Below are positions 6,309 to 27,756 of a stretch of DNA of 64,000 nt, piece after piece; within the stretch, counting starts at the first letter, position 1; each line of letters begins with the position of its first letter. A model generated the notes under the pieces. That model made no database searches. It had not been told where the DNA came from and saw only the letters and a list, made by a program, of their open reading frames with translations. The translations under genes and the position numbers were made by a program. Origin of the DNA: an uncultured Candidatus Saccharibacteria bacterium. Lineage in GTDB: Bacteria > Patescibacteriota > Minisyncoccia > Phycocordibacterales > UBA5272. Location: positions 5,875-69,874 of the forward strand of contig CAZNZQ010000001.1 in NCBI GenBank assembly GCA_964577675.1. The letters are read 5' to 3'.

Positions 6309-8015
6309 CTATGCCGCTGCTTCTAGTTTCTTCTCTATCTCTTGTTCTATTATCTCCAGTCTTTTCTTAAATTTTTTGAGAATAGCCTGTTCTTCTTTTG
6401 TTAACTCTCTTTTACGTTCCGCTTTAACAAGGACATCGTGGAACTCTTCGACATCACGTCTTAGTGCAGCCACGTTAACCTCAAGAGTGTTCTCCACTTC
6501 TTTCAACTTTCTACGGACACCTCTTCTAAAACGATTAAATTGCACGAACGAATACCAGAGCGTCCCTAGTACAGCAAGGACAGCAATAATAATAATCAAG
6601 ATAACTGAGAGCCAGTTCATAACAAAGATACCGAAACGCACGAGCATCATTCTTTCTATTTCTATAACCCTAGTATCTGTATACTCACTTACTGCCCCAC
6701 GACTATCCAGAACCCTTGCTTTCATTTCATAAACACCAGAGGTTAGTTTGTCTCCCCACACCAAACTAAAAACACCTGACTCGTTAGATACTGCTTCTTT
6801 AGTAAACGTCTTACTATTCTTGTCTGTAAGCACCACCTCAACTGTTGACTGCGGGTATGTCGCCCCTACTATTTTAAACGTATTATCAAACTCAACTTTT
6901 CTTGTGTACTCGGTTATAACAGGAGGGGTGATGGCTTGTACTGTATAGTCTAACGAGACACTGCTACTGTTTCCTGCACCATCAATTGCGTTTACTATAA
7001 CTGTATGGTTGCCCGGGGTTTGTTTTGGAAGACGGTATAAGTTCGTAGCATCAATAGGATATTCTATCGCCTGCCCATTATCTATACTTACTGTGATTTT
7101 ACTAATCCCTGACCTAGCATCTTCTGCTTGCACCAAAAGATTTGGGGTTAAGTTGGTGGTGACACTTCCATCAGGGAAAGAAGCTTTTAAGGACTCTGGC
7201 GCTTGTGAGTCTATTTGAAACTTATACGTTGTTACAGAACCCCATCCGCTCCTGGTCTTAAACTGTACATGCATGTAGAAAACACCATCCTCATCTACGG
7301 TAAAAGAACGATTTGAGACTGGAGGGTCGTACACCTTGGTCGGCGTTTCTTTTTCATTCTCTCCATACAAAGTTCTTACCGCGGTGACACCATCAGGTAT
7401 CTTCCATTCAAATGTCGCGTCTCTTCTTGAATACCATTTGGTGCTGTCTTCGTGGGTGGGAGAGGTTATGACCGGCACGAAAGACTCTGTCTTAACTTCT
7501 GGAGCCTCGACTTCGTTAATATAAATAAGCGCAGCCCCTGTTGTCTTTAAAACATCAGTAGCGTTACCATCATTTGCAAGCACCGAACCTTCCTTAATCG
7601 ATAAGGTTACGTTCCCAGCCTGTTTTGCCTTAAACGTTACAGAAAGCACGTTACCCGTTGCTTTATTGAAACCTGGGTTAAGAGCGACCCCCTCTAATGA
7701 AACAGTTCCTTTATCGTTGGAGAAATTAGGCTCTTCTGCCCAGAGGGTTATAAAAGAGCTAGTCTTAGACGTGGAAGTTACCTCTAGTGCATCTTTTGGA
7801 AATGAGAGCAGCGCGGAGACAGCGTTAATAGCGTCGAGATTATTATTAACAATAATATCAACCTTAAATGTCTTCCCTACCGTTGTGGTAACTGAAGAAG
7901 GAGAAAGTACCAGGTTGGCAGCGAAAGCTCCATTTACTAAAAAAGTAAACGCACTAAAAAATATGAGAGTATTACGAATTTTTCTTAAAGTGCTTTTTTG
8001 AAAAAAAGTGAACAT
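6309..8015 (-). CDS. membrane-anchored surface protein with N-terminal cohesin-like domain
   Basis: The signal peptide is MFTFFQKSTLRKIRNTLIFFSAFTFLVNGAFA. A cohesin-like segment follows (TVGKTFKVDIIVNNNLDAINAVSALLSFPKDALEVTS), then Ig-like middle regions. The C-terminus has a TM helix (ILIIIIAVLAVLGTLWY) and a charged coiled-coil tail. The ORF-track start 8066 was replaced by the Met that gives a canonical signal peptide. Confidence 0.5.
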   Translation of the reverse strand: MFTFFQKSTLRKIRNTLIFFSAFTFLVNGAFAANLVLSPSSVTTTVGKTFKVDIIVNNNLDAINAVSALLSFPKDALEVTSTSKTSSFITLWAEEPNFSNDKGTVSLEGVALNPGFNKATGNVLSVTFKAKQAGNVTLSIKEGSVLANDGNATDVLKTTGAALIYINEVEAPEVKTESFVPVITSPTHEDSTKWYSRRDATFEWKIPDGVTAVRTLYGENEKETPTKVYDPPVSNRSFTVDEDGVFYMHVQFKTRSGWGSVTTYKFQIDSQAPESLKASFPDGSVTTNLTPNLLVQAEDARSGISKITVSIDNGQAIEYPIDATNLYRLPKQTPGNHTVIVNAIDGAGNSSSVSLDYTVQAITPPVITEYTRKVEFDNTFKIVGATYPQSTVEVVLTDKNSKTFTKEAVSNESGVFSLVWGDKLTSGVYEMKARVLDSRGAVSEYTDTRVIEIERMMLVRFGIFVMNWLSVILIIIIAVLAVLGTLWYSFVQFNRFRRGVRRKLKEVENTLEVNVAALRRDVEEFHDVLVKAERKRELTKEEQAILKKFKKRLEIIEQEIEKKLEAAA

Positions 8016-8955
8016 GGTTGTGAAGATACACAGAGAAGATATACAACAAACAAAGAAGTAGTACACCCTTAAGTATACGCGAGATTGTGTTGCTTAATTG
8101 TAAGTTTTCAACAGGAGCAATTGTTTTGAAAGCGTATGCGCCATTTGAGTACTCAACCTTCACCTGTGTAAACTTACTTCTATCTTGGTGGAACAAAATA
8201 TACGGTGTCGTTATTTTTTTCCAACGCCTGTCATCCTTATCAGTCACACTTGCTTCAGATGTTTCGATGAGGAAGATATTCTCTATGGCACTCTTAGGTT
8301 CGCCATCATATATTGTGAGGTACCATGCCCCCATATGAATAAGGTCACTCTTTTCAATTGAAGCCTTAAGACTATCTGGCTGTACTTGTTTCACCACCTT
8401 GCCAGGAAGGATAGCGTTCGAAATAAGGCTCGGTACAGATATACTTACATATTGAGGGGTAACAGGGAAAGGGGTAGCTCGCTCATCAAATGAATTAAGA
8501 GAGATATTATCTAAAGAGATGATGCCAATACCTTGTTGGATAGGAAGTAAGATAGCAGTGAAGATGGTTCCCGTGTTTTCTCCAGAATGGTATGCGCTCT
8601 TTACTCCACCGAAACCTCCAGCAAAAATACCCTCAAAGGTAATATGCTCCTTCCCGTCTAGGTATTCTCCTTGCCTCACATTTGGATAAATAAGCCAAGG
8701 AGAAACAACAGACTCATCGACAGAGATTGAGTGCAGTTTAAAAAGCTCTTTCGGGTAAGAGAGTTCTCCTGATATACCGCTCACAATGCCCCCCTCTGGG
8801 TCGAGCATCACTCGGACCATCACCGGGTCACTAGTATTACTAGCCCGCTCAGGCGCGACTATTTCTAGTCTTGCAGCAGAAACAGACATGCATGGCGTCA
8901 ACATGATCCAAATTGCTATGATGCTATTTCTCATATAGTTTCTTTTCATGTTCAT
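7972..8955 (-). CDS. secreted cohesin-like domain protein with C-terminal TM anchor
   Basis: It has a signal peptide and a cohesin-like segment (LEIVAPERASNTSDPVMVRVMLDPEGGIVSGISGELSYPKELFKLHSISV), and ends in a hydrophobic helix plus a basic tail. Confidence 0.4.
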   Translation of the reverse strand: MNMKRNYMRNSIIAIWIMLTPCMSVSAARLEIVAPERASNTSDPVMVRVMLDPEGGIVSGISGELSYPKELFKLHSISVDESVVSPWLIYPNVRQGEYLDGKEHITFEGIFAGGFGGVKSAYHSGENTGTIFTAILLPIQQGIGIISLDNISLNSFDERATPFPVTPQYVSISVPSLISNAILPGKVVKQVQPDSLKASIEKSDLIHMGAWYLTIYDGEPKSAIENIFLIETSEASVTDKDDRRWKKITTPYILFHQDRSKFTQVKVEYSNGAYAFKTIAPVENLQLSNTISRILKGVLLLCLLYIFSVYLHNHVHFFSKKHFKKNS

Positions 8956-8956
8956 T

Positions 8957-9916
8957 TTATCCCGTCCAACAATAAGCGAGAATGCTCAAGTCAGTCAAGT
9001 TTATTTGCCCGTCGACACTAAGATCTACCTTCGCAGGAAATCCGGTGCGCTTATACCAAAAGGCCATAATACTAAAGTCTAGCAGGTTAACCCTGTTGTC
9101 ATTATTTAAATCACACCTCCTGCGGAACCCGCTCAGTTCTGAAAGTTTTGCTCTTAGACGATTAGCATCACCAATCCTAAAATCTATTTCTTGAGAGTAT
9201 GCAGATAGATCATCTACAGTTATAGATCTTGCCTTGGCATAGTGATCTCCAAGCCCTCCTTCCTTTGAGTCAAATACGTACACCCATTTCCCTTCTGCAT
9301 TAGCTCTTACCTGCTTCAGCATCTCCTGTTCAAGCCCGAGCAAAAGACGGACTTCTGCCAAAGGAGCAGAACGTCCAGTAAATGTAACAGGGTCGCCGTA
9401 CTTTACTTCTATCTTATCTGATGTAATCGTAGGCGAAACAAAAATACCATCTATTACAGTCACGACACCATCTGTCACATAAACGCTAAACGTAAGGAGC
9501 TTAGAAGTGAGCCTTTCTACATCCTCTGCCCTAATACCGAAACTATACGTTCCTTGTGTTAAATTGCCAAGACGTATCTCAAATGTCCCGTTCGGAGCAG
9601 CTGGTGATTCTGCGACAATTGAGCCATTTTTTAGAAGAGAGACAACACTACCCGGGTACGCAACACCTCTAAAAATTGCAGCGTCTTTGGTAGTTACTAG
9701 ATTGAGAGGCCCAGGTGCGGGCGGAATCGGGGGGGTGTCTGGGTAGACCAAAGGTGACTGAGGCACAACCGCAGTCACCGTTATGTCTACATACAAAGGA
9801 TTCTGTGTCTGAGCAAAAACCACATCTCTAGCACCTAACAAAAGCACTATTACTGTTAGCGAAGAAAGTGCAGTTCTTATTGCTTTGCTGCAGCGCGAGC
9901 TTGCTCTATGATCCAT
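8957..9916 (-). CDS. secreted protein with C-terminal type-I dockerin domain
   Basis: It has a signal peptide (cleavage VFA-QT). The C-terminus carries two canonical Ca-binding dockerin repeats, DLNNDNRVNLLDFSIMAFWY and DLSVDGQINLTDLSILAYCW. Confidence 0.6.
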   Translation of the reverse strand: MDHRASSRCSKAIRTALSSLTVIVLLLGARDVVFAQTQNPLYVDITVTAVVPQSPLVYPDTPPIPPAPGPLNLVTTKDAAIFRGVAYPGSVVSLLKNGSIVAESPAAPNGTFEIRLGNLTQGTYSFGIRAEDVERLTSKLLTFSVYVTDGVVTVIDGIFVSPTITSDKIEVKYGDPVTFTGRSAPLAEVRLLLGLEQEMLKQVRANAEGKWVYVFDSKEGGLGDHYAKARSITVDDLSAYSQEIDFRIGDANRLRAKLSELSGFRRRCDLNNDNRVNLLDFSIMAFWYKRTGFPAKVDLSVDGQINLTDLSILAYCWTG

Positions 9917-10854
9917 TTGTTGTACTTCTTAACTAAGATGATAAGAAGAAGAATAACTATGAGCAAAATACCAATGACAACTGATAGGAGCTGCCAAGGA
10001 AACATAAAATACGTGACAGAGGCTCCTGCCTTTCCCTCTGCACCAAAAGATAGTTCAAGGTCTGCGGTATACATACCAACGGCTAAGTTACTCATTTGAT
10101 ATTTAACATGATCAAAGAAAGGCGCAGAAACCGCAGGGGCTTCTCCTTCACCATAACGAACATCGAAACGTCTCACACTGCCAGGAAGTACGTTACCTTC
10201 ATTCTGGTTTGCATTAATGCGTGCAGTTTCCATCCCGATACTGTTGCGAATGACAATATCTCCAGCTGGCTTAACACGATCATTACCTGCGTTATTAAAA
10301 CGATAAACGAAATCTACCGGAATACTGCTGAGAACTTTTTTATCTTCTTTGATTGTAAATGAGGAGAGCCCTCCTTCTTCTTTTATGTCACCTGTAACCT
10401 TGAGCAGTATAAGCATTCCAACCTTTGCTCCAACAGAAACCTGACCTCCGTCAGCGCTTGGTGGCACTGTAGAGAGGAAAACTGCAGCAAAGTGTCCACC
10501 AGCGTCAGCGTCTTGAGGGATAGTAACTGTATATGGAATAGTTATTCTCTCCCCTTTCTTAATAGTTACTTTGTCCGTAATAGTTATCCAAGAAGGCAGA
10601 CCGTCTGTTCCTGGTGTAAAGTTAGGTGTACCACTTTCACCTTGTGAGTCGAATGCTTCAACTGAGGTATACAGCACCTGGTCAGTATCTTGTTCATTAA
10701 TAACCAAGAAAGTTTTAGCTATTGACTCCCCCCTATCCCCGGTGAGCTCTTCTCTGGCCGGTGAAATAGTGAGCGCTGTAGCGACACCTAGAGAAAGTGC
10801 TAGCTGTAATGCTACTAGCCCTAGAATTTTTTTCGTGAAGTGATTAGATGACAT
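9877..10854 (-). CDS. cell-surface protein resembling DUF916/DUF3324 (CscA-like) with C-terminal TM anchor and Lys-rich tail
   Basis: 325 aa with a signal peptide, a ~280-aa ectodomain (GGHFAAVF motif), a C-terminal TM helix (VVIGILLIVILLLIILV) and a KKYNK tail. This is the architecture of WxL-cluster DUF916/DUF3324 proteins. The assignment rests on architecture and loose motif resemblance. Confidence 0.35.
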   Translation of the reverse strand: MSSNHFTKKILGLVALQLALSLGVATALTISPAREELTGDRGESIAKTFLVINEQDTDQVLYTSVEAFDSQGESGTPNFTPGTDGLPSWITITDKVTIKKGERITIPYTVTIPQDADAGGHFAAVFLSTVPPSADGGQVSVGAKVGMLILLKVTGDIKEEGGLSSFTIKEDKKVLSSIPVDFVYRFNNAGNDRVKPAGDIVIRNSIGMETARINANQNEGNVLPGSVRRFDVRYGEGEAPAVSAPFFDHVKYQMSNLAVGMYTADLELSFGAEGKAGASVTYFMFPWQLLSVVIGILLIVILLLIILVKKYNKWIIEQARAAAKQ

Positions 10855-10873
10855 TGGAGATTAGTTTAGATTT

Positions 10874-11965
10874 CTAGAAGTTTGCAGTAGCAACGTAAGT
10901 AAGGTTGGCTGCATATGTACCTGCTTCTGTGATAGCAGCGATGTTAGCGAGATAACGTAGAGAAATTGTCGATGTTGGAGTCGACCCTGTTCCTGATGCT
11001 AGTGATGACGGTGTTGAAGACGAAGCATCAAAGCCGTACGACGTAGCCGCTGAGTAAGTCGGATCTAGAGTGACGTTCGTGCCACCAGATTCGGTCGCAC
11101 GTAGTGCAAATTGTTCTGTTCCTGGTGTAGAAGATGCAGCTGTCCCGCCAACCGCTGTAATGGTATTGAGAGAGTTCTGTTGAGAAGTTAATGTATCTCC
11201 GCGCACAGTAACAGCGAAGCCGTATGGCGCATTCGTAGAAACAGCTAACGTATGCGCAATTGTATCTGTAGTATCTCCAGCTGTATTAGTCGATGAAGCG
11301 AATTTAGCAGCGCCAGACCCTAGGTTGCCGAAATAGATAGTAGTAGTAGAGATAGTGAAGGTGAGAGACTGTTGGACGGTGCCAGTCATAGACACTGTAT
11401 CATCTGAGATAATATAGGTGCTTATAGAGCCTGTATCGCCAAAGGTTCCTCCGATTGTTATTTCGTAGAGACCAGGTGTAGCAGGGTTAGTGATCTGCTG
11501 AGCGCCTGTCGCGCCGAAAGTAGCATTTGAGCCAATTTCTATCTGAACACACCTGTTCGCTGGAATAACAGCAGTGCCTGACGTGATAGTGATGGTCTGG
11601 GAAGCCTGAGCGGTTCCCCACGTCTGACCAGATGCTGCACCCGCTTGAAGTGCGGCATCCTGGAAACCAGAACACGTAGCTGAGGTGCTAGTTGCGAAAT
11701 CTAGATTGTTAACACTAAAAGTTCCCATTGCGTATCCGGCTGGGAATGTGATTTGAATGTTCTGTCCCGCACCCACACCAGTAGGAGTTACAAACTGAAT
11801 TGTATGGTTAGAAAGAGTGCTCACCTGAACCGAACTCTGAGTATTGGAAAGGCTAGTAAGAGAAGCAGCAAATGCGAGCTCTATGTGAACCAGAGAAGCT
11901 CCGACACCGATAGCCGCAACAGTAACGGCGCTTACAGCTTTCTTTATAAATGAATTTTTAAGCAT
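10874..11965 (-). CDS. secreted T/S/G/A-rich protein, paralog 1, with WxL-like C-terminal module
   Basis: 363 aa with a signal peptide. Its C-terminal ~170 aa are shared with 12108..13226 and 13275..16553 (QQSLTFTISTTTIYFGNLGSGAAKFASSTNTAGDTT...AGTYAANLTYVATANF). Confidence 0.5.
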   Translation of the reverse strand: MLKNSFIKKAVSAVTVAAIGVGASLVHIELAFAASLTSLSNTQSSVQVSTLSNHTIQFVTPTGVGAGQNIQITFPAGYAMGTFSVNNLDFATSTSATCSGFQDAALQAGAASGQTWGTAQASQTITITSGTAVIPANRCVQIEIGSNATFGATGAQQITNPATPGLYEITIGGTFGDTGSISTYIISDDTVSMTGTVQQSLTFTISTTTIYFGNLGSGAAKFASSTNTAGDTTDTIAHTLAVSTNAPYGFAVTVRGDTLTSQQNSLNTITAVGGTAASSTPGTEQFALRATESGGTNVTLDPTYSAATSYGFDASSSTPSSLASGTGSTPTSTISLRYLANIAAITEAGTYAANLTYVATANF

Positions 11966-12107
11966 ATCAATAATTAATTACTAAACTATCTTTTAAGAAT
12001 TTTTTATTCTTATTTTATCTAAGTGTACCATCTGCGTAGAATTTTCCATCGTTTTATGTGGAAAAGCTTGGAAAGTAATAGAAGTTACACACTCAAACAG
12101 CCCACAA

Positions 12108-13226
12108 TTAGTAGTTAGCAGTCGCCACATAGATAAGACTGGCTACGTAGGTACCAGCTTCAGTGGTACCAGCTATATTGGCCACATATCTGAGCGAATA
12201 GGTAGAAGTGTTCGTTGACCCGCTTCCTGTTGCTAGAGTTGCCGGGGTTGTGGATGAGGCATCAAACCCGTATGATGTTGCAGCAGAAAACGTAGCATCG
12301 ACAGTAGCGCCTGTTCCTCCTGATACGGTAGCCCTGATTCCGAACTGCTCAGTGGCAATAGTAGAGGAAGCAGCTGTTGCCCCCATGGCAGTAATAGTAT
12401 TGAGTGCACTTTGCTGAGAAGTAAGCGTATCTCCTCGTATTGTTATGTTGTACCCAGAAGGCGCGTTAGTTGATATAGCTAAAGTATGCGCAATTGTTTC
12501 TGTTGTATCTCCTGCAGTATTAGTTGATGAGGCAAACTTAGCTGCACCAGACCCTAGGTTACCAAAATAGATAGTAGTAGTAGAGATAGTGAAGGTGAGA
12601 GATTGTTGGACGGTCGCACTGACGATAACAGTATCGTTAGTGATAATATTCTGTGTAATTGTTCCATCGTCTGCTCCGGCTCTAATTGTGAGTGCATAAG
12701 AACCAGGAGATGCTGGGTTAGTTATCTGCGAGACCCCAGTTGCGCCTGACGTTGCATTGGCTCCGATCTGAACTTGTACACAACGGTTGGCTGGAATGGT
12801 GGCTGTACCAGAAGTAAGGTACACAGTTGCAGTTGCTTGTGTTACTCCCCATGTGTTTCCAGAAGCTGCACCAGACTGGATAGCTGCGTCTTGGAAAGTA
12901 ACACATGACGCTGAAGTACTAGTTGCCAGATCAAAGTTAGCTATTGCAAAAGTACCCGTTGCGTAACCAGAAGGAAAGGTGATGCTAATTCCCTGCCCCG
13001 CAGAAAGCCCTGTTGGTGTAACAAATTGAATTGTGTGATCAGACAGCGTACTTACTTTGAGTGAGCTTTGAGTGTCTGAGAGACTTGAGAGGGCTGCAGC
13101 ATGAGCTAGCTCAACATGCACAATAGAGACACCTAAAACGATTGAAATAATTGTGACAAACGAAAGCGTCCTATTTAAAAAGCTGCTACCAATCCGTATT
13201 CTGGAAAAAAGACTGCTGAGTACCAT
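12108..13226 (-). CDS. secreted T/S/G/A-rich protein, paralog 2, with WxL-like C-terminal module
   Basis: 372 aa, about 65-70% identical to paralog 1 over the full length, ending ...AGTYVASLIYVATANY. Confidence 0.5.
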   Translation of the reverse strand: MVLSSLFSRIRIGSSFLNRTLSFVTIISIVLGVSIVHVELAHAAALSSLSDTQSSLKVSTLSDHTIQFVTPTGLSAGQGISITFPSGYATGTFAIANFDLATSTSASCVTFQDAAIQSGAASGNTWGVTQATATVYLTSGTATIPANRCVQVQIGANATSGATGVSQITNPASPGSYALTIRAGADDGTITQNIITNDTVIVSATVQQSLTFTISTTTIYFGNLGSGAAKFASSTNTAGDTTETIAHTLAISTNAPSGYNITIRGDTLTSQQSALNTITAMGATAASSTIATEQFGIRATVSGGTGATVDATFSAATSYGFDASSTTPATLATGSGSTNTSTYSLRYVANIAGTTEAGTYVASLIYVATANY

Positions 13227-13274
13227 AGACCTTTATAGAATATCATAGAAGAAACTGCTTAGTAAGTGGGCTAC

Positions 13275-16200
13275 TTAAAAATTAGCCGTAGCTACATATA
13301 CTAGACTGGTACTGTAATCTGCGGGCGGAGTTGTAGCAGCTACATTAAGAAGATATCTAAGCGAAAAAGTGGTCGTCGCACTGTCGCCAACCGTAGAAGA
13401 AGCCACTTGCACCGCAGTAGATGTAGAAGCACCGAATGCGTAGAGAGCCGATGCGTAAGGAGAATTAACGCCACCAGAACCACCTGATGCTGTAGCTCGT
13501 ATACCGAACTGTTCAGTCCCTGGATTGGAAGTCGAGCTTGTGCCACCTAATCCAGCTATGGTCGTTGTCCCTGCTGAAAGACTTCCACCCTGGAGGGTGA
13601 TAGAATACCCGTTTGTAGCGCTTGTTAAGACAGAGACGGTGTGCGCCACGACTTCTGTGTTACTTCCGCCTGTACTTGTACTCGACGCATATCTCGCCTG
13701 CGCAGGAGAGGCTACACCAAAGTAAACGCTTGATGTTGATATGCTAAACGTAATCGCCTGCGAAGATGACGCACTACTGCGCTCCTCCCACTCTACGAGC
13801 AACCTGTACCGGACCAGGGCATCGCCGCGAGCCTGTTCGTTATAGAGAGCAAAACCTTCTCCTTCTTTGAGAATAAGTTCGTCTCCATAATAGATGTCAC
13901 TTTCATAGTTACCAAAGGGTTGGTTGACCACGCCCGGCACAGTAATACCAAGAAGTCGTGATTCGGCAGCCTGCGCAAGCGTTACCGTGACACCTGTGGT
14001 ACGTATATCTGATGTGGTCGTTGCCGTGCCTGAATGTTTTCTAGGGATACTCGTAGAAGCGACAGAAGTCCCAGCTGAGACTGCGCTTATTTTTCTAACG
14101 GCCGCTGAACCGTAGACTGGCGCAACCGCTGTACCACTACGATTAACCCTGATGCCTAACTTCTTCACCAAAAAGTTTTTACCTGAACCAGACGGGTTAA
14201 AGAATGACGTATAGACATACCCATTTGCAGTAGACTGATTGACTGGACCAGATGTGTACAGATACTCTCCTTGAGAAGATGGAGTTACAGATTCCTCGTC
14301 CCATTCAATAAGAACTTTTACCCTAAAATCAGCATCCCCAGCTGCAGTATCATGATAAAAACCAACACCTTCACCTGCTTGTAAAATTAAAGGTTCCTTA
14401 TTGCTAAATTCTATTTCTTTATACCCAGTATTGCCAGCTGCAGCACTGGCTACTGCCCCTGGTGTCTGTATCGCGAGAAGCTTAGAATCGGTTGTCCCGG
14501 AATATGTAGCCGTAACACCAGTTCGACGTATTTCTACAATACTATTTGCAGTTCCAGAATGTTTTTTAGGTATGTTTGCTGCAGTAATTTGTGTCCCTGC
14601 TGACGCAGCAGAGATACGCCGTAGCTGCATTGGAATATAGACCGCCGCTGCAGCAGTGTCTACTCTTATACTTACCCTCCTAATAATTGCAGTCTTACCA
14701 GAGCCAGCTGGGTTAAAAAATGTCGCATAGTTATATGAGGTCGCAGCACTTCCGTTAATAGGTCCTATATCTATAAGGTACTCTCCTTGGGATGTGGGCG
14801 CAGAAGCTTCTTCATCCCACTCGATCTGAATCTTTACATAATTATCAACATCCCCTGTTGCTAAGTTATAGAGCCCTATTCCTTCCCCTGGTTGTAGTAC
14901 TATCTTCTCATTCTCACCAAGAACAATTTCTCTCTCTCCTATGGTCTGCCCTACAGCACCTGGGGAGTTAACGGTTAGAAAGTTAGAGTCTGTTGTTCCG
15001 AAGTAAGTAGCAGTAATGGCAGAAGCACACGCAAGTCCACACCACCTCATTTCCATTACACTATTTGCTGTCCCGGTATGCTTCTTCGGTAGAGCACCAG
15101 CTGCTACGAGTGTACCCCCCGACGCTACGGTCATCCTCCTAAAAGCGTACCCAACATACACTGCGGTAGTATCTGCATTTATCTTCACCAAGAGCCTCTT
15201 AACAACCGCGGTCTTACCTGAACCAACTGGATTAAAGAACGAGTAGTGGGTTGTGTTAGCTGCGGGTGACGCTTCTACGCGTGATGACGCCCATATATAC
15301 TCGCCCTGCGACGAAGGCGTATTACTTGTATCAACTTCTTGCCACTCTATAATCATACGAACAATTTGATCGATGTCACCAGCCGTCTCTGAAATAAGGG
15401 CTATTCCTTCACCGGCCTGTAATATAAGTTTTTCATCACTCTCATGAAAGTCCATTTGTTGCCAGCCTATTGCCTGTCCTGTTGTGCCACATGGAGTAAC
15501 ATTACCGATACGCGCATCAATACCACCGGCAGTCGTAGTAGAGACAGTAACCCCTGTGCGCCTAAACTCCATTTTAGTATCAGTACCGCTTGTGTTTTTC
15601 TTTGGAATACTAGACGTAGCGATAGACGTCCCACCGGTTGCTGATGATGTTCTCTGCAAAATAATGTTATTGGTATAGATGGCGGCTGCGTCACATGTCT
15701 CTGTCCCGAACCAAACACGCTTCACAACTGCTGTCTTACCGGACGCAGATGGGTTAAAAAAGGAATTGTAAGTGTACCCTGCGGTTGCCGCCACTTCAAC
15801 ACGAGGAAAAGCAAAGAGAAACTCGTTTTGCGGAGAAGGAGCATTCACTGTTTCCTCCCACTCTATAAGTACACGGACGCGAGCTGTAACTGTGCCAGCA
15901 GCTTCTTGATAAACTGCGACACCTTCCCCTGGCTGAACCACAATTCGCTCATCACTTTCCCCAAACGTAATATCACGCCCTGGGTAATACGCTCCAACAG
16001 CACCAGAAAGAGGTCGCCCTAAAATTCTGGAATCTGTTGTTCCTGAAAGAGACACTGTAGGGCCAGCTGTTCGAACCTCGATAACAGAATCAGTTGAACT
16101 AGAGTTTTTATCTACATAATCTGTCGCTATAATTTGCGTACCAGCTGAGGATGTAGAAATCCTGCGCAAGCTTAAGTTAACATAGTTTGAAGCAGTAGAG

Positions 16201-16553
16201 GAGGCGGTGTTTGCTCGTATGGCCACTCTCTTAATAGAAGCAGTACGCCCAGAAGCAGATGGGTTAAAAAAAGCTACATATACATAGTTCGCCCCAGTGG
16301 AACCGTTCACAGGCCCGATATCTAACATATATTCTCTTTCTCCTGGGTTTAGTGCAGCCTGTGCCTTGGGCACTGAAAAGTAATTATCAACAACATTTTT
16401 GTTAAGCGAAGCTAAGTAGAGTTTGTCCACTATTTGAGAATTTTTATGCTCTTTTACTATATATTGAGAAGCGTAAAAAAGAGCCACTGGATCAAAACCA
16501 GAGAAGAACAGGTATACAATAAGAAAGAGTGAGAATATTTTCTTAATCAGCAT
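13275..16553 (-). CDS. giant secreted paralog: 5 tandem ~165-aa repeats plus the shared WxL-like C-terminal module
   Basis: 1092 aa. It has five internal repeats, each containing FFNP[SA][GA]SGKTA[VI][VI]KRV and ES/NDE[KR][LI][IV]LQ[AP]GEG[IV][AG] and ending in IEW[EQD]E. The last ~195 aa are homologous to the two smaller paralogs (...SLVYVATANF). Confidence 0.55.
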   Translation of the reverse strand: MLIKKIFSLFLIVYLFFSGFDPVALFYASQYIVKEHKNSQIVDKLYLASLNKNVVDNYFSVPKAQAALNPGEREYMLDIGPVNGSTGANYVYVAFFNPSASGRTASIKRVAIRANTASSTASNYVNLSLRRISTSSAGTQIIATDYVDKNSSSTDSVIEVRTAGPTVSLSGTTDSRILGRPLSGAVGAYYPGRDITFGESDERIVVQPGEGVAVYQEAAGTVTARVRVLIEWEETVNAPSPQNEFLFAFPRVEVAATAGYTYNSFFNPSASGKTAVVKRVWFGTETCDAAAIYTNNIILQRTSSATGGTSIATSSIPKKNTSGTDTKMEFRRTGVTVSTTTAGGIDARIGNVTPCGTTGQAIGWQQMDFHESDEKLILQAGEGIALISETAGDIDQIVRMIIEWQEVDTSNTPSSQGEYIWASSRVEASPAANTTHYSFFNPVGSGKTAVVKRLLVKINADTTAVYVGYAFRRMTVASGGTLVAAGALPKKHTGTANSVMEMRWCGLACASAITATYFGTTDSNFLTVNSPGAVGQTIGEREIVLGENEKIVLQPGEGIGLYNLATGDVDNYVKIQIEWDEEASAPTSQGEYLIDIGPINGSAATSYNYATFFNPAGSGKTAIIRRVSIRVDTAAAAVYIPMQLRRISAASAGTQITAANIPKKHSGTANSIVEIRRTGVTATYSGTTDSKLLAIQTPGAVASAAAGNTGYKEIEFSNKEPLILQAGEGVGFYHDTAAGDADFRVKVLIEWDEESVTPSSQGEYLYTSGPVNQSTANGYVYTSFFNPSGSGKNFLVKKLGIRVNRSGTAVAPVYGSAAVRKISAVSAGTSVASTSIPRKHSGTATTTSDIRTTGVTVTLAQAAESRLLGITVPGVVNQPFGNYESDIYYGDELILKEGEGFALYNEQARGDALVRYRLLVEWEERSSASSSQAITFSISTSSVYFGVASPAQARYASSTSTGGSNTEVVAHTVSVLTSATNGYSITLQGGSLSAGTTTIAGLGGTSSTSNPGTEQFGIRATASGGSGGVNSPYASALYAFGASTSTAVQVASSTVGDSATTTFSLRYLLNVAATTPPADYSTSLVYVATANF

Positions 16554-17532
16554 AACTTATATAAGAATAGACATCTTCGCTAATTTCTTTGAAAATCTCC
16601 TTAATTGCAAATTGATTAAGTTCTCCTGGCTTATTTTGTGCTATCATCACAGTTAGTATGTACGGCCTCCCCGGCACATAAACAATCCCAGAGTCCGCCA
16701 TGACCTTCTCGTCTATCCTGATACCAGTCTTGTGTACGAAAGCTATGTCACTAGGTAACCCAAGAGAAAGATATTCTTTTGGCGCTCGACTCAAGATATC
16801 CAAAAATAACTTAGAGTTCTCGTGTGTAAAGTATGTTGAGTTATAAAGAGATCTAAAAAAGATAGAGTAACGCTTCGCGGTGATTCTGTTGTCTACATCT
16901 GAGTCTTTTTTATTATCGCGTTTAAGTGTATCTATAACGTCGTCCATTCCAAGGTGAACAAACACCTCTTCGAGCTCTTCCCCTTCTAAGTTGCGAAGAA
17001 GGATGAAGTGGGCGGTGTTGTCAGAGTTAATTAACGACTCTTCCAAAAGTCGCTTAATCGACATAGATGTACCTGTTGGAAGTTTATACATTTCACCAAA
17101 CTCACTATCTTTATCTTGATCCAAGATGACGAGCTCGTTATGTAACTTCCACTTCCCTTCCTCCACCTTTTTTAGTGCTGCCATGGCAACAGGTATCTTG
17201 ATGAGACTGGCTGGCCATATCTTCTCATCTTTATTAACAGCAATGTTAGCCCCTGTAGGTAAATACTCAAAATAAATTGATATCGTATAATCCCCTTTCC
17301 CTTCATACCCCTGCAGCTTCTCTCTCAATTCTTGAAAATCAACTATTAGATTCCTTTTGTCTAGGACAGCAAGCGACGGGTTAAGGTAACTAGAAACATC
17401 ATTTGCAGTAAAGCGGGCGTCGCCTCTAGTTAACAGGAGAATAAAAACTGTGCAAAGCAGTACTCCAATAATTACAACATATGCTTTGTTGGTATAAAAA
17501 TTGTGTAGAGCTTTTGTAATTATTTTTTTCAT
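16543..17532 (-). CDS. class A beta-lactamase-fold serine hydrolase (beta-lactamase/transpeptidase-like) with N-terminal TM
   Basis: 329 aa. All three class-A motifs are present in the right order and spacing: S-x-x-K (ASLIK), SDN (INSDNTA) and KTG (HKTGI). Confidence 0.55.
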   Translation of the reverse strand: MKKIITKALHNFYTNKAYVVIIGVLLCTVFILLLTRGDARFTANDVSSYLNPSLAVLDKRNLIVDFQELREKLQGYEGKGDYTISIYFEYLPTGANIAVNKDEKIWPASLIKIPVAMAALKKVEEGKWKLHNELVILDQDKDSEFGEMYKLPTGTSMSIKRLLEESLINSDNTAHFILLRNLEGEELEEVFVHLGMDDVIDTLKRDNKKDSDVDNRITAKRYSIFFRSLYNSTYFTHENSKLFLDILSRAPKEYLSLGLPSDIAFVHKTGIRIDEKVMADSGIVYVPGRPYILTVMIAQNKPGELNQFAIKEIFKEISEDVYSYISYAD

Positions 17533-17537
17533 ATATA

Positions 17538-20057
17538 TTATTCTTCGGTTGTAGTTGCGGTAACCGGCAAGTTGAGGCTGCTGATAGTATCTTTATCTAG
17601 AATACTATCTAGTTCAAACTTTCGCCTAAGAGCTTCTGATAGGCTGCCGTCATCGTCAGAGAATACCTCTCCTGTTTGTTCACTATAAAATGCAAAGTCC
17701 TGCGCTCCAACTATAACTTCCCATCGAACACCGTCAAAGACAACACGGCCTCTTTCTCCAATTGATGTGTCATGTGCCGGAACCTCTCTCACTTGAATAG
17801 ATTTGTCGGTCAAATTAAAAGCATACACTCTTGACCTATCTTCAGAGAGCCAAAATAAGTGCGTATCCTTAATTCCAATCTGCATATTTTTATCTATTGT
17901 AATAGATGTTGAGGATCCAGCTTCTATCTTATACTCCCCTCCATTCTGGAGATCATACAACCACAACTCTTCCTTGCCATCTTTCTCCACCTGAACAATG
18001 ACAGCATTAAGGAGTGCGCCTCTAATTCTTTTAATCAAGTCTTTTGCAAAATCAGGCAAGCGATCCTCTTTCGTTTCTTCTGTCTTATCTTCCTTCTCTT
18101 CTTTTTTTATTTCTTGGACGATTTCGCGAGGAGAAAGTAAGGACCATGATTCTTTCTTCTCCAGCTTAAACCACTTATTCTTCGGTGTAACTGGAATGAT
18201 CACTGTGCTGCTTGTTGCAGTAGAAGTAGCTGTGATATCTGTACTCGCGGCAACTGAGCTTGTAGCTACTTCTGTCGTTGAAGTTGCGGTTACTAACGAG
18301 GATACCTCTTCTGTGGAGGTAGCCAAACTATTAGTTGTTGTCGCTACAGTTGTACTTGCGATATCTAAGGTACTGGTTGCTTGCGACACCTCTTCCTCAA
18401 GATACATATACCATATCTCTTCTTCATTGGTTTCGTTATTGATAATAGTTACTAGTCGCACACCATCAATCATCTCATCGTTAAGTATCGTATCTCTCGT
18501 AAAGTCTGGATGAGTATACTCTAGAGTAGAATCGTAAAGCACTTCTACCTTAACTGCATCGAGATATGTCACAGGCGTCTCACGTTCTAGGCTTTTAACA
18601 GTTACTTTTACTTGTAGCTGAGTCATATCTGCCCAGGTAGACGAGGCAGAAAGCGGGATTTCGAATGTTCTATATTTCATAGAGATCTCGTTGAGTTCAC
18701 CAAGAGAAGTCCAAGTAACTCCATCGAATGTGTACAGTATTTCTAAGAAGTTATTCTGTGACTCTTCTGGCGCTTGAGACAATAGCTCAGATGATGTTGA
18801 AACCATTTCTGTGGTTGATGCTAGACTTGAACTAGCTATAGAGAAGAGGTCGTCTGTGGAGGAAGCCGTTGTTGTGGCTGACAAAGAAACAATACTAGAG
18901 GTAGAGTTCTCCGGTGAAGCTTGTGACGAAGTGGATACAACCAAGGAGAGACCTTCGTCTGCCGTTTGAGTTACAGGCGTAGCTGTTTGTTCCTCTGTTC
19001 CTGGCTCGTCTATCTCTTGCGTCTCACTAGAGATTGAAGTAGTAAAAGATTCTTCGGGTGTAATGGCTACGAGCGGAGCCTCTTCCTCCATAGCCTGAAC
19101 AGGAGTGGCTACCTCCTCACTGCTCTCCTGCGCGAAAACAGTGGTAATAAAAAGTGAACCGATTCCCTGAAGAAGGTCCCGCATAAAAGATGTAGGGGCT
19201 TCAGGTGGTACTGAACTATCTCCTGCGGGCGTGACCTCTGCAGGGATTGACACTTCTTGGGATGCTGGCATGGTTTCTATCACAGGCGGTGGCACTACTA
19301 CCGTGTCTGTAACACTCTCAGACGGTGAGTTGTTAAAAATATTCCCCAGCGTTTCAGTTACCGCTCCTACAATAATCTCCGCGAATGATTGATTATCGTT
19401 TACTGATTGTGTGGTCGAAGCCTCAAGTGCCTCATTGGCAGTTTGAACAGGCGGAGATGAGGAGGCGGATGTTGAAGTTGACACAGTCTCTGTAGAGGAA
19501 GCTGAGAGTAATTCTTCAGAAGTTGAGGATGTTATCAGGGTTGTACTTGCGACAGCATTTATTACCTCAGTTGTTGTAGCTAGTTCACCAATAGTAATTT
19601 CTTCTTTATTAGTTATCGCAAGAGAAACAATTATCTTCTTAGGGACAGTTGCGTCATTAAATGTACCGTCGAAATTACCGCAATAGATATCAGCTGCTGT
19701 ATTCTTGTCTAGAATGGCTGAGTTCTTGTCGTTAAATTGTGAAGGGTCTGCATTAGATGTTGTCTCTCCTTCTTTCTCTGCATTACGAGGGTTGCTCCAA
19801 CCACCTAAACACGTCTCTGGATAAAAAGTTACAATATCAGCCTTACCACGTGGTGAGATAAAGCTGCCAACCACAAGAACAAGGACAAGCGAAGACAGTG
19901 CCATCATCATGTGCTTCTTCTGAAGAGCTCTATCGACTTGCTCTGAATACGAGAAGACCAAGTCATTCAGCGACTTGCTAACATTGTCGATATGAGACCC
20001 GACTTCGGGAAAATTCTTAGAAATGATTCTTGGTTTTCTTAGTTGGAATTTGCCCAT
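17538..20057 (-). CDS. single-pass membrane protein with very long S/T/A/E-rich low-complexity ectodomain
   Basis: 839 aa with an N-terminal TM (MMMALSSLVLVLVVGSF) and several hundred residues of S/T-rich low complexity. It has no recognisable catalytic motifs. Confidence 0.5.
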   Translation of the reverse strand: MGKFQLRKPRIISKNFPEVGSHIDNVSKSLNDLVFSYSEQVDRALQKKHMMMALSSLVLVLVVGSFISPRGKADIVTFYPETCLGGWSNPRNAEKEGETTSNADPSQFNDKNSAILDKNTAADIYCGNFDGTFNDATVPKKIIVSLAITNKEEITIGELATTTEVINAVASTTLITSSTSEELLSASSTETVSTSTSASSSPPVQTANEALEASTTQSVNDNQSFAEIIVGAVTETLGNIFNNSPSESVTDTVVVPPPVIETMPASQEVSIPAEVTPAGDSSVPPEAPTSFMRDLLQGIGSLFITTVFAQESSEEVATPVQAMEEEAPLVAITPEESFTTSISSETQEIDEPGTEEQTATPVTQTADEGLSLVVSTSSQASPENSTSSIVSLSATTTASSTDDLFSIASSSLASTTEMVSTSSELLSQAPEESQNNFLEILYTFDGVTWTSLGELNEISMKYRTFEIPLSASSTWADMTQLQVKVTVKSLERETPVTYLDAVKVEVLYDSTLEYTHPDFTRDTILNDEMIDGVRLVTIINNETNEEEIWYMYLEEEVSQATSTLDIASTTVATTTNSLATSTEEVSSLVTATSTTEVATSSVAASTDITATSTATSSTVIIPVTPKNKWFKLEKKESWSLLSPREIVQEIKKEEKEDKTEETKEDRLPDFAKDLIKRIRGALLNAVIVQVEKDGKEELWLYDLQNGGEYKIEAGSSTSITIDKNMQIGIKDTHLFWLSEDRSRVYAFNLTDKSIQVREVPAHDTSIGERGRVVFDGVRWEVIVGAQDFAFYSEQTGEVFSDDDGSLSEALRRKFELDSILDKDTISSLNLPVTATTTEE

Positions 20058-21422: not shown

Positions 21423-21564
21423 TGTGTGATAGGCCTTATAAAGTGTGGTAGCAAAAATCCCACCACGTGGTGAGGTCTTGCGACCTCCATACCCGTTTCC
21501 AGGTACGGCCTATCACAGCAAAATCCACATGATGGGGTTTTTACTGTGATAGGACATTGTTCGC
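21423..21564. promoter_or_regulatory. palindrome-rich divergent control region (operator-like TGTGATAGG repeats)
   Basis: GTGTGATAGGCC at 21423, the inverse GGCCTATCACAG at 21509 and CTGTGATAGG at 21553; the last two form a 10-bp-stem inverted repeat around a 25-nt spacer. A perfect 12-bp palindrome CACCACGTGGTG sits at 21458, with GAGGTCttgcGACCTC next to it. Confidence 0.45.
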
Positions 21565-21710
21565 CATGCCGCTGATTACTCAAATGGTTTAGGCTACTTG
21601 TATTGATTTGTAAGAACATTATACCTCGTTTTTGAGGTCTTTGGTACTATAGCTTACTAATAAAATTTTGTGTAGAGAAATTATTTTATAATTAGTTTGT
21701 ATTTTTTACA

Positions 21711-27643: not shown

Positions 27644-27714
27644 GCTGGGGTATAAGGACTCGAACCTCAATTAACGGTGCCAGAAACCGTTGTCCTACCA
27701 TTAGACGATACCCC
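27644..27714 (-). tRNA. tRNA-Gln (anticodon CUG)
   Basis: Reverse complement TGGGGTATCGTCTAATGGTAGGACAACGGTTTCTGGCACCGTTAATTGAGGTTCGAGTCCTTATACCCCAG folds as a cloverleaf. It has a U1-A72 acceptor, anticodon stem ACGGT/ACCGT, loop TTCTGGC and a TTCGAGT T-loop, and closely resembles E. coli tRNA-Gln. CCA is not encoded. Confidence 0.75.
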
Positions 27715-27756
27715 AATTAATATTTTGTGGCTCACTACCTCGTTCCTGCCCTTAAT

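Follow-up and report, generated by a model that had tools for sequence, protein, structure and literature searches.

A five-jelly-roll protein with a Pam-type pilin domain as a candidate pilus tip subunit of Patescibacteria

The gene at 13275..16553 on the minus strand of the analysed DNA (a stretch of 64,000 nucleotides from a Candidatus Saccharibacteria contig, referred to below as the window) encodes a 1092-aa protein, which we read, with a probability of about 0.55, as a PamT-like pilus tip subunit bearing a large rigid jelly-roll head. Pam pili are donor-strand-exchange pili of CPR/Patescibacteria, described in 2026 in one cultured Saccharimonadia parasite, Ca. Mycosynbacter amalyticus, with PamA, PamB, PamE and PamT, and recognition of the host was left there as an explicitly open question (bioRxiv 10.64898/2026.03.03.709456). 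From its N-terminus, the protein consists of a hydrophobic segment, five jelly-roll repeats, a spacer and a Pam-type pilin domain. This last domain and the pilus operon surrounding the gene determine the identity of the protein, and both had been missed in the first-pass annotation of the window. The reading frame reported there was confirmed by the ORF listing and translation, with minus as the coding strand, and by more than 120 full-length homologs of 50-100% identity.

The presence of five tandem repeats, recognised at the outset, was corroborated by the motif positions and by pairwise identities of 35-47%. The repeat block covers aa 65-924 and is divided into repeat 1 (R1, aa 65-234; 15852..16361, minus strand, as for all genes and protein segments below), repeat 2 (aa 235-406; 15336..15851), repeat 3 (aa 407-581; 14811..15335), repeat 4 (aa 582-753; 14295..14810) and repeat 5 (aa 754-924; 13782..14294). 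FFNP occurs at aa 95, 265, 439, 612 and 784, GEG at aa 209, 381, 556, 727 and 898, and EW[EQD]E at aa 231, 403, 578, 750 and 921, which gives a period of 170-175 aa rather than the ~165 aa estimated previously. Even the least alike pair, R1 and R5, matched with a BLASTP E of 1e-35, far beyond chance. The repeat motifs proposed earlier hold as consensus descriptions, but as strict patterns they are matched exactly in none of the repeats, and the closing IEW[EQD]E ascribed to every repeat is found in four, the fifth having VEWEE. Similarly, the DNA motif GGGTTAAAAAA does recur on the plus strand, exactly three times (14710, 15751 and 16261) and nowhere else in the window, being the reverse complement of the FFNP codons TTT TTT AAC CC; in R3 and R5, however, FFNP is written with other codons. 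Repeat 2 contains a near-invariant Cys287/Cys355 pair, and repeat 3 an invariant Cys505/Cys509 (WCGxxC). The description of the protein as built from repeats was too broad, as aa 1-64 (hydrophobic N-terminus and a conserved segment) and aa 925-1092 fall outside them, and the latter region of ~168 aa is a different domain, common to two downstream genes.

The number of repeats is fixed. Exactly five were found in 119 of 120 homologs and in every complete representative, the latter ranging from 863 to 3782 aa; the whole of this length variation lies C-terminal to the five-repeat block. The repeats are orthologous by position across homologs, and the linkers between them are invariant in length or occur in two states, so that the term 'expandable' used for this protein before does not apply. 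The same evidence bears on the possibility that collapse or expansion during assembly had produced a wrong repeat number, a caveat raised together with the original description and now of practically negligible probability. At the DNA level the repeats are only 55-63% identical, with 17 nt as the longest shared exact word, Tandem Repeats Finder detected no tandem repeat in the DNA, and over 100 independently assembled homologs agree in length and in having these five repeats.

Each repeat is confidently predicted to be an eight-stranded jelly roll. Repeat 4, modelled alone as a single unit, reached a pLDDT of 91, and the full-length AlphaFold model a pLDDT of 85 with a pTM of 0.77. The latter value would indicate a rigid multi-domain body, not beads on a string, which makes the 'fibril stalk' suggested in the first-pass annotation unlikely; the view of the repeat as a domain of no known family, on the other hand, was upheld, since no match to aa 65-924 was found in Pfam, NCBIfam or PHROGs, and a search of the repeat profile against PDB sequences was equally empty. 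Ig-like adhesin repeats (Big_x, Cadherin-like), a match to which would have spoken against that view, were rejected, with no hit in Pfam or NCBIfam and a jelly-roll fold. Structural matches in Foldseek were generic (7-16% identity), among them weak ones to PNGase F and PHM, and the top match of the full-length model was single-chain C1q. A genuine Walker A loop connects a beta-strand to an alpha-helix within an alpha/beta fold. In the all-beta repeat domain, NP[SA]GSGKT lies instead in the loop of a beta-hairpin (in the single-repeat model, strands 27-33 and 41-52 with loop 34-40 between them), and NTPase matches were sub-threshold and confined to this short loop; a P-loop NTPase was thus rejected. 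Some members of the family carry misleading database names, 'nicotinamide riboside kinase' and 'RecA/RadA recombinase', due to this Walker-A look-alike, and the P-loop-like names are corrected by the fold.

The C-terminal domain (aa 932-1092; 13278..13760) starts with QAITFSISTSSVYFG, common to pilins, and ends in ...YVATANF. It matched NF058581 (CPR_Pam_pilin_C) over aa 964-1092 with a marginal 56.9 bits against a cutoff of 55, while homologs P0074 and P0080 scored 72.4 and 65.4 bits. From the QxxTFxIS segment to the C-terminus it is 42% identical to both downstream pilins, and it shares TEQFGIRAT and the terminal YVATANF with them. In the protein of the window and its closest relatives this domain is as conserved as in genuine pilins; in several distant homologs no Pam C-terminal domain was detectable. 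We propose that the last ~160 aa form an incomplete Ig-like fold, the groove of which would accept a strand of the next subunit. The protein is not a PamT equivalog: NF058579 (PamT) gave 31.9 bits, far below its cutoff of 240, over model positions 102-241 only, and 1092 aa compare with ~240 aa. These partial matches, weak as they are, were nevertheless higher in the five-repeat family (31.9, 34.6 and 39.2 bits) than in pilins (21.7-30.5). An N-terminal domain of the PamA/PamB/PamE type was not found, its place being taken by the five jelly-roll domains, and hhalign of the repeat profile against that of the pilin family gave a probability of 0.2%, indicating that the repeats are not related to the N-terminal domain of pilins.

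A cluster of nine genes that is conserved across Patescibacteria has the five-repeat gene as a core member, and its order recurs in 56 loci of this group: a Ser/Thr-rich protein, a beta-lactamase-like enzyme, the five-repeat protein, one to four pilins, a TM-anchored chaperone-like protein, a dockerin protein and two TM proteins. In the window, the cluster begins with an 839-aa Ser/Thr-rich membrane-anchored protein (17538..20057), followed by a putative 329-aa membrane-anchored class-A beta-lactamase/PBP-like serine enzyme (16543..17532; Beta-lactamase2, E = 2.5e-40) with intact SxxK, SDN and KTG motifs in its translation. The stop of the latter gene overlaps the start of the five-repeat gene by 11 nt, and it is the immediate upstream neighbour in 33 of 48 loci. 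Downstream lie two pilin paralogues, of 372 aa (12108..13226; NF058581, 69.5 bits, and family conservation) and 363 aa (10874..11965; 67.2 bits), the former with a signal peptide, an N-terminal domain, a donor-like strand and a Pam C-terminal domain. The next gene encodes a 325-aa protein (9877..10854) in which a signal peptide precedes a beta-rich body and a TM helix lies at the C-terminus; this architecture makes it a candidate PamC/PamD-like membrane-anchored chaperone, although no Pfam family matched it even at E = 10. It is conserved downstream of the five-repeat gene in 22 of 32 loci, and the following 319-aa dockerin protein (8957..9916; Big_6 and Dockerin_1 matches) in 25 of 32. The dockerin protein, composed of a signal peptide, a donor-like strand, a Pro-rich spacer, an Ig-like domain and a dockerin, with no TM helix, is by analogy with PamR a candidate terminator or anchor subunit. 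Two proteins with C-terminal TM helices, of 327 aa (7972..8955) and 585 aa (6309..8066), match each other and close the cluster as candidate membrane anchors. No standalone PamT-like gene was present among the nine cluster genes scanned in the window. The chaperone-like and dockerin genes are kept at distant loci as well; for some distant homologs no downstream pilin was detectable (14 of 32 loci).

The distribution of a short strand motif among these proteins suggests the position of each in a filament. The mature N-terminus of the dockerin protein has, across 26 loci, a conserved strand [DE]x[VI]x[VI][ST]AxV (LYVDITVTAVV in the window, 9764-9796) and, after it, a Pro/Gly spacer. A position matrix derived from this strand picked NDTVIVSATV (aa 197-206; 12609-12638) at the domain junction of the 372-aa pilin with a score of 18.7, above 99% of shuffles, and the same offset was the top match in 49 pilin homologs. 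The equivalent 10-mer scored on average 13.1 in 120 pilins versus -6.3 in 89 five-repeat proteins. The second pilin (DDTVSMTGTV) scored poorly. In the five-repeat protein the DTVxVSATV motif is absent, while the TFxIS...YFG segment that follows it is kept; the Ser-rich spacer RSSASSS (aa 925-931; 13761..13781) stands where the pilins have their donor-like strand. The segment containing this spacer varies from 11 to 16 aa in homologs, and the large insertions of relatives fall here. We infer indirectly from these sequences that DTVxVSATV is probably the donor strand of the pilins, its motif being shared with the dockerin protein as the putative terminator, and that the five-repeat protein probably accepts a strand but does not donate one.

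If so, the five-repeat protein would be exported through Sec, its pilin domain would be held by the membrane-anchored chaperone-like protein, and it would take a donor strand (DTVxVSATV) from the first shaft pilin. Having no donor strand of its own, it could not be added behind another subunit and would thus come to lie at the distal tip, like PamT, FimH and PapG. One to four pilin paralogues would build the shaft beneath it, and the dockerin protein, with an N-terminal strand of the same motif, would end shaft growth; the shared strand motif suggests that assembly proceeds from tip to shaft to terminator. Contact with the host cell surface would be made by the five-jelly-roll head, joined in relatives by the lectin, propeller or beta-helix modules inserted beside it. 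The modules that relatives carry between R5 and the pilin domain include a Laminin_G_3 lectin, RCC1 and DUF5122 propellers, a beta-helix, CARDB and Ig-like domains. These modules, as well as the virion-module phage relatives of the repeat, support an adhesive role, and of the secreted adhesin or stalk envisaged at the first pass an exported protein acting in surface adhesion is still the best reading. One feature speaks against the tip: ligand-binding modules of a classical adhesin are found at its far N-terminal end, whereas here the variable modules of ligand-binding type follow the conserved block and precede the pilin domain.

A placement of the protein at the other end of the filament was considered as well. 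The hydrophobic segment, aa 1-33 (16455..16553), may, judging from its sequence, be a signal peptide or else a signal anchor; AlphaFold modelled low-confidence helices at aa 2-17 and 22-38, and by a simple heuristic such a segment was found in about half of the complete representatives. The hydrophobic stretch of aa 6-33 is long and lacks a canonical signal-peptidase site nearby, as expected if an uncleaved helix remained in the membrane and the five jelly rolls spanned the cell envelope as a basal stalk or anchor. In the family conservation profile, aa 41-67 (16353..16433) comprise a conserved segment VDKxYLAxxNKNVVDNF and, after it, a near-invariant A-x-A|A at aa 64-67, which may be a distal signal-peptidase site; an uncleaved protein would remain attached to the membrane, a poor fit with a role at the tip. 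The conservation of the N-terminal part, with all variable modules C-terminal, is the pattern of a cell-proximal N-terminus, and translational coupling to the membrane-anchored PBP/beta-lactamase-like enzyme, which could remodel the surrounding wall, points in the same direction. A basal subunit of a donor-strand pilus must, however, donate to the last pilin, and the motif is missing; a full acceptor pilin domain would be needless for an anchor, PamR having none; and a membrane-tethered acceptor would leave neither end of the filament free of the membrane. Moreover, the cluster holds a better candidate in the dockerin protein with its donor-like strand, followed by the two TM proteins. We therefore find a basal location unlikely, and it is just as unlikely that the C-terminal part joins the pilus base or presents the inserted modules at the cell surface.

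A different reading of the retained QxITFSISTSTIYFG segment would place the protein within the shaft. This segment is ~70% identical between the five-repeat protein and the pilins and lies just outside the NF058581 model, on its N-terminal side, at the position of the linker between the N- and C-terminal domains in the Pam paper, and filaments of mixed PamA and PamB, in which the N-terminal domain packs onto the shaft, were reported (bioRxiv 10.64898/2026.03.03.709456), so that heterologous insertion is conceivable. Should it be the true Pam 'linker' strand, the five-repeat protein could donate as well as accept, and would decorate the shaft at intervals with five-jelly-roll side arms as a minor subunit. 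We regard this as quite unlikely: in pilins and P0080, the alignment to the model of PamT, a subunit said to be without a linker, extends over this segment (model positions 76-85 onward), suggesting that it belongs to the fold, and it is confidently structured in the monomer model. The PamA/B N-terminal domain, furthermore, stabilises the shaft by packing onto it, which an 860-aa block could not do. That the protein has no part in a pilus at all and is a free-standing surface protein or enzyme, its pilin-like domain being self-complemented or serving chaperone-assisted export only, is even less likely, as is the corresponding role of the jelly-roll block as, for example, a glycan-binding or glycan-processing surface array. 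Distant homologs without a detectable Pam C-terminal domain, loci without a downstream pilin and the occurrence of tandem jelly rolls in some enzymes (PNGase F and PHM, for example) are in its favour. Yet the fold matches to these enzymes are generic, no conserved catalytic constellation was identified, the pilin domain is, in the window and the closest relatives, as well conserved as in genuine pilins, among which the gene is embedded, and the chaperone-like and dockerin genes persist at distant loci.

The named homologs and the 56 genome loci belong almost entirely to Patescibacteria, including Paceibacteria/Parcubacteria, Kerfeld-, Kaiser- and Gracilibacteria, and others. The few remaining carriers are MAGs labelled as DPANN archaea, Gammaproteobacteria or Bacteroidia, and mis-binning is likely, because some have the same CPR-type operon. 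In many other CPR lineages, the five-repeat family is a conserved candidate for the end of Pam-type pili that meets the host, and its lectin, propeller or beta-helix variants offer starting points for testing host specificity in organisms of which nearly all are uncultured. The jelly-roll domain family itself was uncatalogued (595 clusters at 50% identity) and is shared with phages.

The nearest relatives of the repeat are small uncharacterised phage proteins located in virion structural modules. They include one protein of Streptomyces phage Coruscant (A0A7G4AW45; Foldseek E = 4e-12, TM 0.80, 27% identity), RosePharie gp42 and many 'uncultured Caudovirales' proteins, all with the same jelly-roll fold, and standalone metagenomic relatives have the same signature of NPxxSG[KR], GEG/GQG and EWEE. 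Gp16 of Helicobacter phage KHP40, a trimeric cement protein of solved structure (PDB 7dou), is also a jelly roll, but only 10% identical. In contrast to the five-repeat protein, the phage relatives are single-domain proteins of 150-270 aa without signal peptides, none being a five-fold tandem or joined to a pilin. It is possible, but rather unlikely, that the five jelly rolls form a closed or tightly packed single-chain pseudo-oligomer, possibly a pseudo-pentameric head, derived from a small phage virion or tail protein and captured as the host-recognition tip of a CPR-specific donor-strand pilus. The fixed copy number would in that case be dictated by geometry, and the conserved head would be a general host-contact device of Patescibacteria episymbionts. 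Jelly-roll binding heads at fibre ends are known from C1q, adiponectin, BclA and the F-BclA tip fibrillum of Bacillus Ena; these heads, 7-12% identical to our protein, are trimers of separate chains, whereas here five non-identical copies are covalently linked and a collagen-like stalk is lacking. The five-repeat protein was not placed in the C1q/TNF superfamily, which is defined by trimeric assembly of the jelly roll and a family sequence signature. The Ena subunits (DUF3992) polymerise into the fibre itself.

Closest to the system of the window are the Pam pili. The C-terminal domain passes NF058581 and its terminal strand is that of the adjacent pilins, the operon also encodes pilin paralogues and a candidate chaperone with a TM helix at its C-terminus, the family is restricted to CPR in almost all loci, and the five-repeat protein, like PamT, appears to have no donor strand. 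The order of the cluster appears to match the published logic, in which PamC and PamD are PapD/FimC-like chaperones with a C-terminal TM helix, PamR is a terminator with an N-terminal strand and no acceptor pilin domain, and PamT is a single-domain protein of 25.6 kDa (bioRxiv 10.64898/2026.03.03.709456). The differences are a nine-strand beta-sandwich N-terminal domain in Pam pilins against five jelly rolls (~860 aa), the single-domain nature of PamT, to which the five-repeat protein scores 32 bits against a cutoff of 240, and a TM helix in the Pam terminator in place of the dockerin of our candidate. The text and one supplement file of that paper make no mention of a five-repeat subunit (bioRxiv 10.64898/2026.03.03.709456), though a 'tail fibre-like protein', left unnamed and lying close to pam operons, might belong to the same family.

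A chaperone-usher two-domain adhesin was rejected, as no usher or chaperone-usher-family match was found in the cluster. In FimH and PapG, a receptor-binding module lies N-terminal to an incomplete Ig-like pilin domain, and the subunit, which accepts a strand and does not donate one, is incorporated first and so forms the tip. No sequence relationship of the five-repeat protein to FimH or PapG was detected, and its system differs in the lack of an outer membrane and an usher, in five jelly rolls instead of one lectin domain, and in a candidate chaperone that is membrane-anchored. The logic is nevertheless the same, a likeness of mechanism rather than of family membership.

The reverse-strand gene at 13275..16553 (1092 aa in the ORF listing) encodes a hydrophobic N-terminus with a conserved segment (aa 1-64, outside the repeats), five units delimited by recurring motifs (R1-R5; aa 65-234, 235-406, 407-581, 582-753 and 754-924), and a separate, non-repeat domain at aa 925-1092. 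The first-pass annotation had described five tandem repeats of about 165 aa, and their presence was confirmed by motif positions, pairwise identity and BLASTP. FFNP, GEG and EW[EQD]E occur five times each, the units are 35-47% identical to one another, and even the most divergent pair is matched with E = 1e-35; the period, on the other hand, is 170-175 aa. Repeat words had also been reported at the DNA level on the + strand, which holds only in part: GGGTTAAAAAA occurs three times in the window, always within this gene, and is the reverse complement of the codons for FFNP in R1, R2 and R4, the only units covered. Assembly collapse of the repeats can be dismissed, because Tandem Repeats Finder reported no DNA tandem repeat in the gene, nucleotide identity between the repeats is 55-63% (longest identical run, 17 bases), and the homologs have the same number of repeats.

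More than 120 full-length homologs (50-100% identity, almost all of about 1090 aa) were found in Parcubacteria, Pacebacteria, Kerfeldbacteria, Gracilibacteria and Moranbacteria, and exactly five repeats were counted in 119 of 120. An exhaustive profile search with the repeat through 1.84 billion representative proteins matched 595 clusters, whose complete multi-repeat members carry five repeats without exception; the block starts at about residue 20-80, and a simple heuristic finds a hydrophobic N-terminal segment in about half of them. Thus, the expandable repeat number proposed earlier is not borne out. Total length in the family ranges from 863 to 3782 aa, the variation being wholly C-terminal to the five-repeat block. 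Compared with three distant homologs, repeats at the same position are 49-70% identical and those at different positions 34-51%; judged by sequence, each repeat is orthologous by position across homologs. Among 52 homologs, the length of each linker between repeats is invariant or takes one of two values, and the segment from R5 to the C-terminal domain varies from 11 to 16 aa. The cysteines of two pairs (Cys287/Cys355 and Cys505/Cys509) are practically invariant, in keeping with an extracytoplasmic location.

No match to Pfam, NCBIfam or PHROGs was obtained for aa 65-924, in agreement with the initial failure to assign the repeat to a known family, and the repeat profile gave only noise against PDB sequences (best E = 0.06). 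The full-length AlphaFold2 model, built from a 52-sequence alignment, is confidently predicted and all-beta (mean pLDDT 85.2), and its pTM of 0.77 over a chain of six domains suggests that the modelled domains are held rigidly in a defined arrangement; repeat 4 alone, with a 45-row repeat alignment, reached pLDDT 91 and pTM 0.86. When the full model was compared with the PDB by Foldseek, exclusively tandem-jelly-roll proteins were returned (single-chain C1q head, PNGase F, PHM and double-jelly-roll capsid proteins). A viral structure library gave a closer best match, to a Streptomyces phage Coruscant protein that is uncharacterised (E = 4e-12, TM 0.80, 27% identity), followed by numerous small uncharacterised Caudovirales proteins. 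Homologs were detected by tblastn in three Streptomyces phages, and in RosePharie the gene (gp42, 169 aa) lies between capsid/minor-tail genes and the holin. The jelly-roll family formed by the repeat is uncatalogued; it otherwise comprises small proteins of phages and standalone ones from metagenomes, which lack signal peptides.

The standalone single-domain relatives (160-250 aa, no signal peptide) share the N-terminal motif IQ[VL]PP[DN]STG[KL]K. Standalone or fused relatives are encoded at two loci, L006 (6001-6633, protein P0168) and L008 (714-3110, P0194); one standalone relative lies on a contig dense in small ORFs, near a phage integrase, and in a 798-aa relative the repeat domain is fused to PHROG 1645 'virion structural protein'. 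Every repeat, as well as the phage relatives, contains a loop resembling a Walker A motif, NPxxSGK[TS] (e.g. NPSASGRT at aa 97-104 and NPAGSGKT at aa 614-621). An NTPase reading of NPSGSGKT / NP[SA]GSGKT was rejected, as in the repeat 4 model this loop is placed within a beta-hairpin and not in a P-loop fold. It is probably this loop that lies behind misleading source names of homologs, such as 'nicotinamide riboside kinase' and 'RecA/RadA recombinase', and behind sub-threshold ABC/MobB matches.

In the C-terminal domain, residues 964-1092 match NF058581 (CPR_Pam_pilin_C, 'Pam pilus system pilin subunit') in NCBIfam with 56.9 bits at a cutoff of 55, and the same model recognises the directly downstream pilin (12108..13226, -, 372 aa, 69.5 bits; pilin 372) and a second pilin (10874..11965, -, 363 aa, 67.2 bits). 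The final 160 residues are 42% identical to these two pilins, the common span extending from QxxTFxIS, via TEQFGIRAT, to the terminal YVATANF. Neither pilin 372 nor the pilin family profile matched any PDB sequence, the PamA/PamB entries 25PZ and 25QA not being recovered. Amplification of the pilin N-terminal domain as the source of the five-repeat block was also considered and rejected, since profile-profile comparison (hhalign) of the two gave a probability of 0.2%. The Pam system is known from a 2026 preprint that reports cryo-EM of filaments of a CPR parasite. There, PamT, encoded in the Pam operon, is the tip subunit and comprises the C-terminal domain alone, without a linker; the chaperones PamC and PamD are PapD-like and end in a TM helix; the terminator PamR combines an N-terminal strand with an anchor in the membrane; and an unnamed 'tail fibre-like protein' co-localises with pam operons (bioRxiv 10.64898/2026.03.03.709456). 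Its text and supplement mention no five-repeat subunit, jelly rolls or adhesin, and the unnamed protein might be the five-repeat family. A literature search for a CPR jelly-roll pilus subunit found this preprint alone.

The pilus gene cluster occupies 6309..20057, entirely on the reverse strand, between sugar-metabolism and FAD-oxidase genes on one side and, on the other, an island of low GC that encodes a serine recombinase and a C5 methylase. In a survey of 56 loci from species-representative genomes the same order recurs: the S/T-rich 839-aa protein, a beta-lactamase-like enzyme, the five-repeat protein, one to four pilins, the chaperone-like 325-aa protein with a C-terminal TM segment (9877..10854, -), the 319-aa Big_6 and dockerin protein, and two TM-anchored proteins. 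The gene directly upstream of the five-repeat gene encodes the beta-lactamase-like enzyme in 33 of 48 loci and the S/T-rich protein in 10 further ones; downstream, a detectable pilin, the chaperone-like gene and the dockerin gene are found in 18, 22 and 25 of 32 loci, respectively. The membrane-anchored class-A beta-lactamase/PBP-like enzyme (16543-17532, -) has intact SxxK (SLIK), SDN and KTG motifs and could remodel peptidoglycan for passage of the pilus. Its stop codon lies in an 11-nt overlap with the start of the five-repeat gene, and at locus L017 a second copy follows the five-repeat gene and precedes the pilins. In the Big_6 and Dockerin_1 protein (8957-9916, -) a donor-like strand (9764-9796) and a Pro-rich spacer come right after the signal peptide, and the two TM-anchored proteins that follow (7972-8955 and 6309-8066) match each other; the arrangement suggests that a pilus terminator is docked, via dockerin, to anchors in the membrane. 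No cohesin family match was found, and Pfam at E = 10 gave nothing for the chaperone-like, 327-aa TM and S/T-rich proteins or for the C-terminal domain, so cohesin or PapD-like folds are not claimed. Just upstream of the cluster, a LOOT RNA (21472-21595, -; Rfam RF03000, 83.5 bits) lies in the low-GC stretch (about 0.36 at 20-28 kb vs 0.43 elsewhere in the window), which also holds a tRNA (27645-27715), the serine recombinase (22462-23751), a DUF5681 protein and the C5 DNA methylase, and is probably an integrated mobile element.

The place of the five-repeat protein in the pilus may be approached through its domain junction. In the pilin family two conserved beta-like segments succeed each other there, DDTVxVSATV and QQSLTFTISTTTIYFG; the five-repeat family has only the second, the first being replaced by a short, poorly conserved Ser/Pro spacer right after repeat 5. 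Two peptides, NDTVIVSATVQQ and QQSLTFTISTTTIYFG, are candidate strands for the groove of the pilin domain at aa 925-1092. At 26 loci, the dockerin protein has, just past the signal-peptide cleavage site, a conserved strand [DE]x[VI]x[VI][ST]AxV (e.g. ESISVSATV, DTVTIRASV, VDITVTAVV) and then a Pro/Gly spacer, which is the architecture ascribed to the terminator PamR (bioRxiv 10.64898/2026.03.03.709456). A position matrix built from these N-terminal strands picked out exactly NDTVIVSATV in pilin 372 (aa 197; score 18.7, above 99% of shuffles), and the same offset was the top match in 49 pilin homologs; the second pilin scored poorly. The mean 10-mer score at the junction offset was 13.1 in 120 pilins vs -6.3 in 89 five-repeat proteins, none of which exceeded 12. 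From the conservation of the junction strand and these scores we infer, indirectly, that the strand donated is DTVxVSATV and that the five-repeat protein has none. It would then be an acceptor-only subunit, possible in a donor-strand pilus solely at the distal tip. A segment of the S/T-rich protein (17538-20057, -), SESVTDTVVV followed by PPP (aa 246-255), scored 18.9, on a par with the pilin junction, and may be a chance match in a Ser/Thr/Val-rich sequence or an internal donor-like strand.

The gene order is consistent with a succession of tip, shaft, chaperone, terminator and anchors. A scan of the nine cluster genes turned up no separate PamT-like gene, and partial PamT-model scores were somewhat higher for the five-repeat family than for the pilins, both in line with the tip reading. 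Alternatively, the Pam linker could be the TFxIS...YFG segment, which the five-repeat protein retains and which lies just beyond the NF058581 model. A position as basal anchor would gain weight if the N-terminal stretch were retained: the hydrophobic part (aa 6-33) is followed by the conserved segment, and a near-invariant AxA|A does not appear before residues 64-67. The longer relatives place their extra modules between repeat 5 and the C-terminus, so that these variable parts adjoin the pilin domain and not the far N-terminal end. The modules include an RCC1 propeller (P0080, whose operon matches that of the window and which keeps the Pam C-terminal domain at aa 1514-1647), Laminin_G_3 (ConA-like lectin), a DUF5122 propeller, a NosD/right-handed beta-helix, CARDB, Big_13, Big_7, fn3 and DUF2341, and many of the longer relatives close with a Pam-like terminal strand (...TANY, ...VTGRF).

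A separate matter is the homologs in genomes with unexpected labels, namely Hadarchaeales, Pacearchaeota, Nanoarchaeota and Aenigmatarchaeota (L049, L051, L054, L056, L062, L063), Gammaproteobacteria/Pseudomonadales (L024, L043, L052) and Bacteroidia (L064). Mis-binning is the likely cause, because some of these MAGs carry other CPR-type cluster genes; L056 also has the chaperone-like and dockerin genes, and L051 the S/T-rich gene only. L049 contains an ORF of roughly 4000 aa, and the L064 gene, split into many short ORFs, is a pseudogene or a result of sequencing errors. At a distant locus of Moranbacteria GW2011_GWC2_37_73 (L001, 13536-17093), no Pam C-terminal domain was detectable in the five-repeat protein; its gene is followed by those of two small secreted proteins of 224 and 246 aa and of a 655-aa protein with a faint WxLIP_PGBD match, LysM and LytR_C, a hint that Pam-type clusters may be linked to the clusters for WxL surface proteins in Firmicutes.

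By its parts, the five-repeat protein has the Pam pilin C-terminal domain, lacks a PamA/B-type N-terminal domain and is not a PamT equivalog. By function it is closest to PamT and to FimH and PapG, the two-domain adhesins at the tips of chaperone-usher pili. In many CPR lineages it is a conserved candidate, open to testing, for the end of these newly discovered Pam pili that contacts the host.
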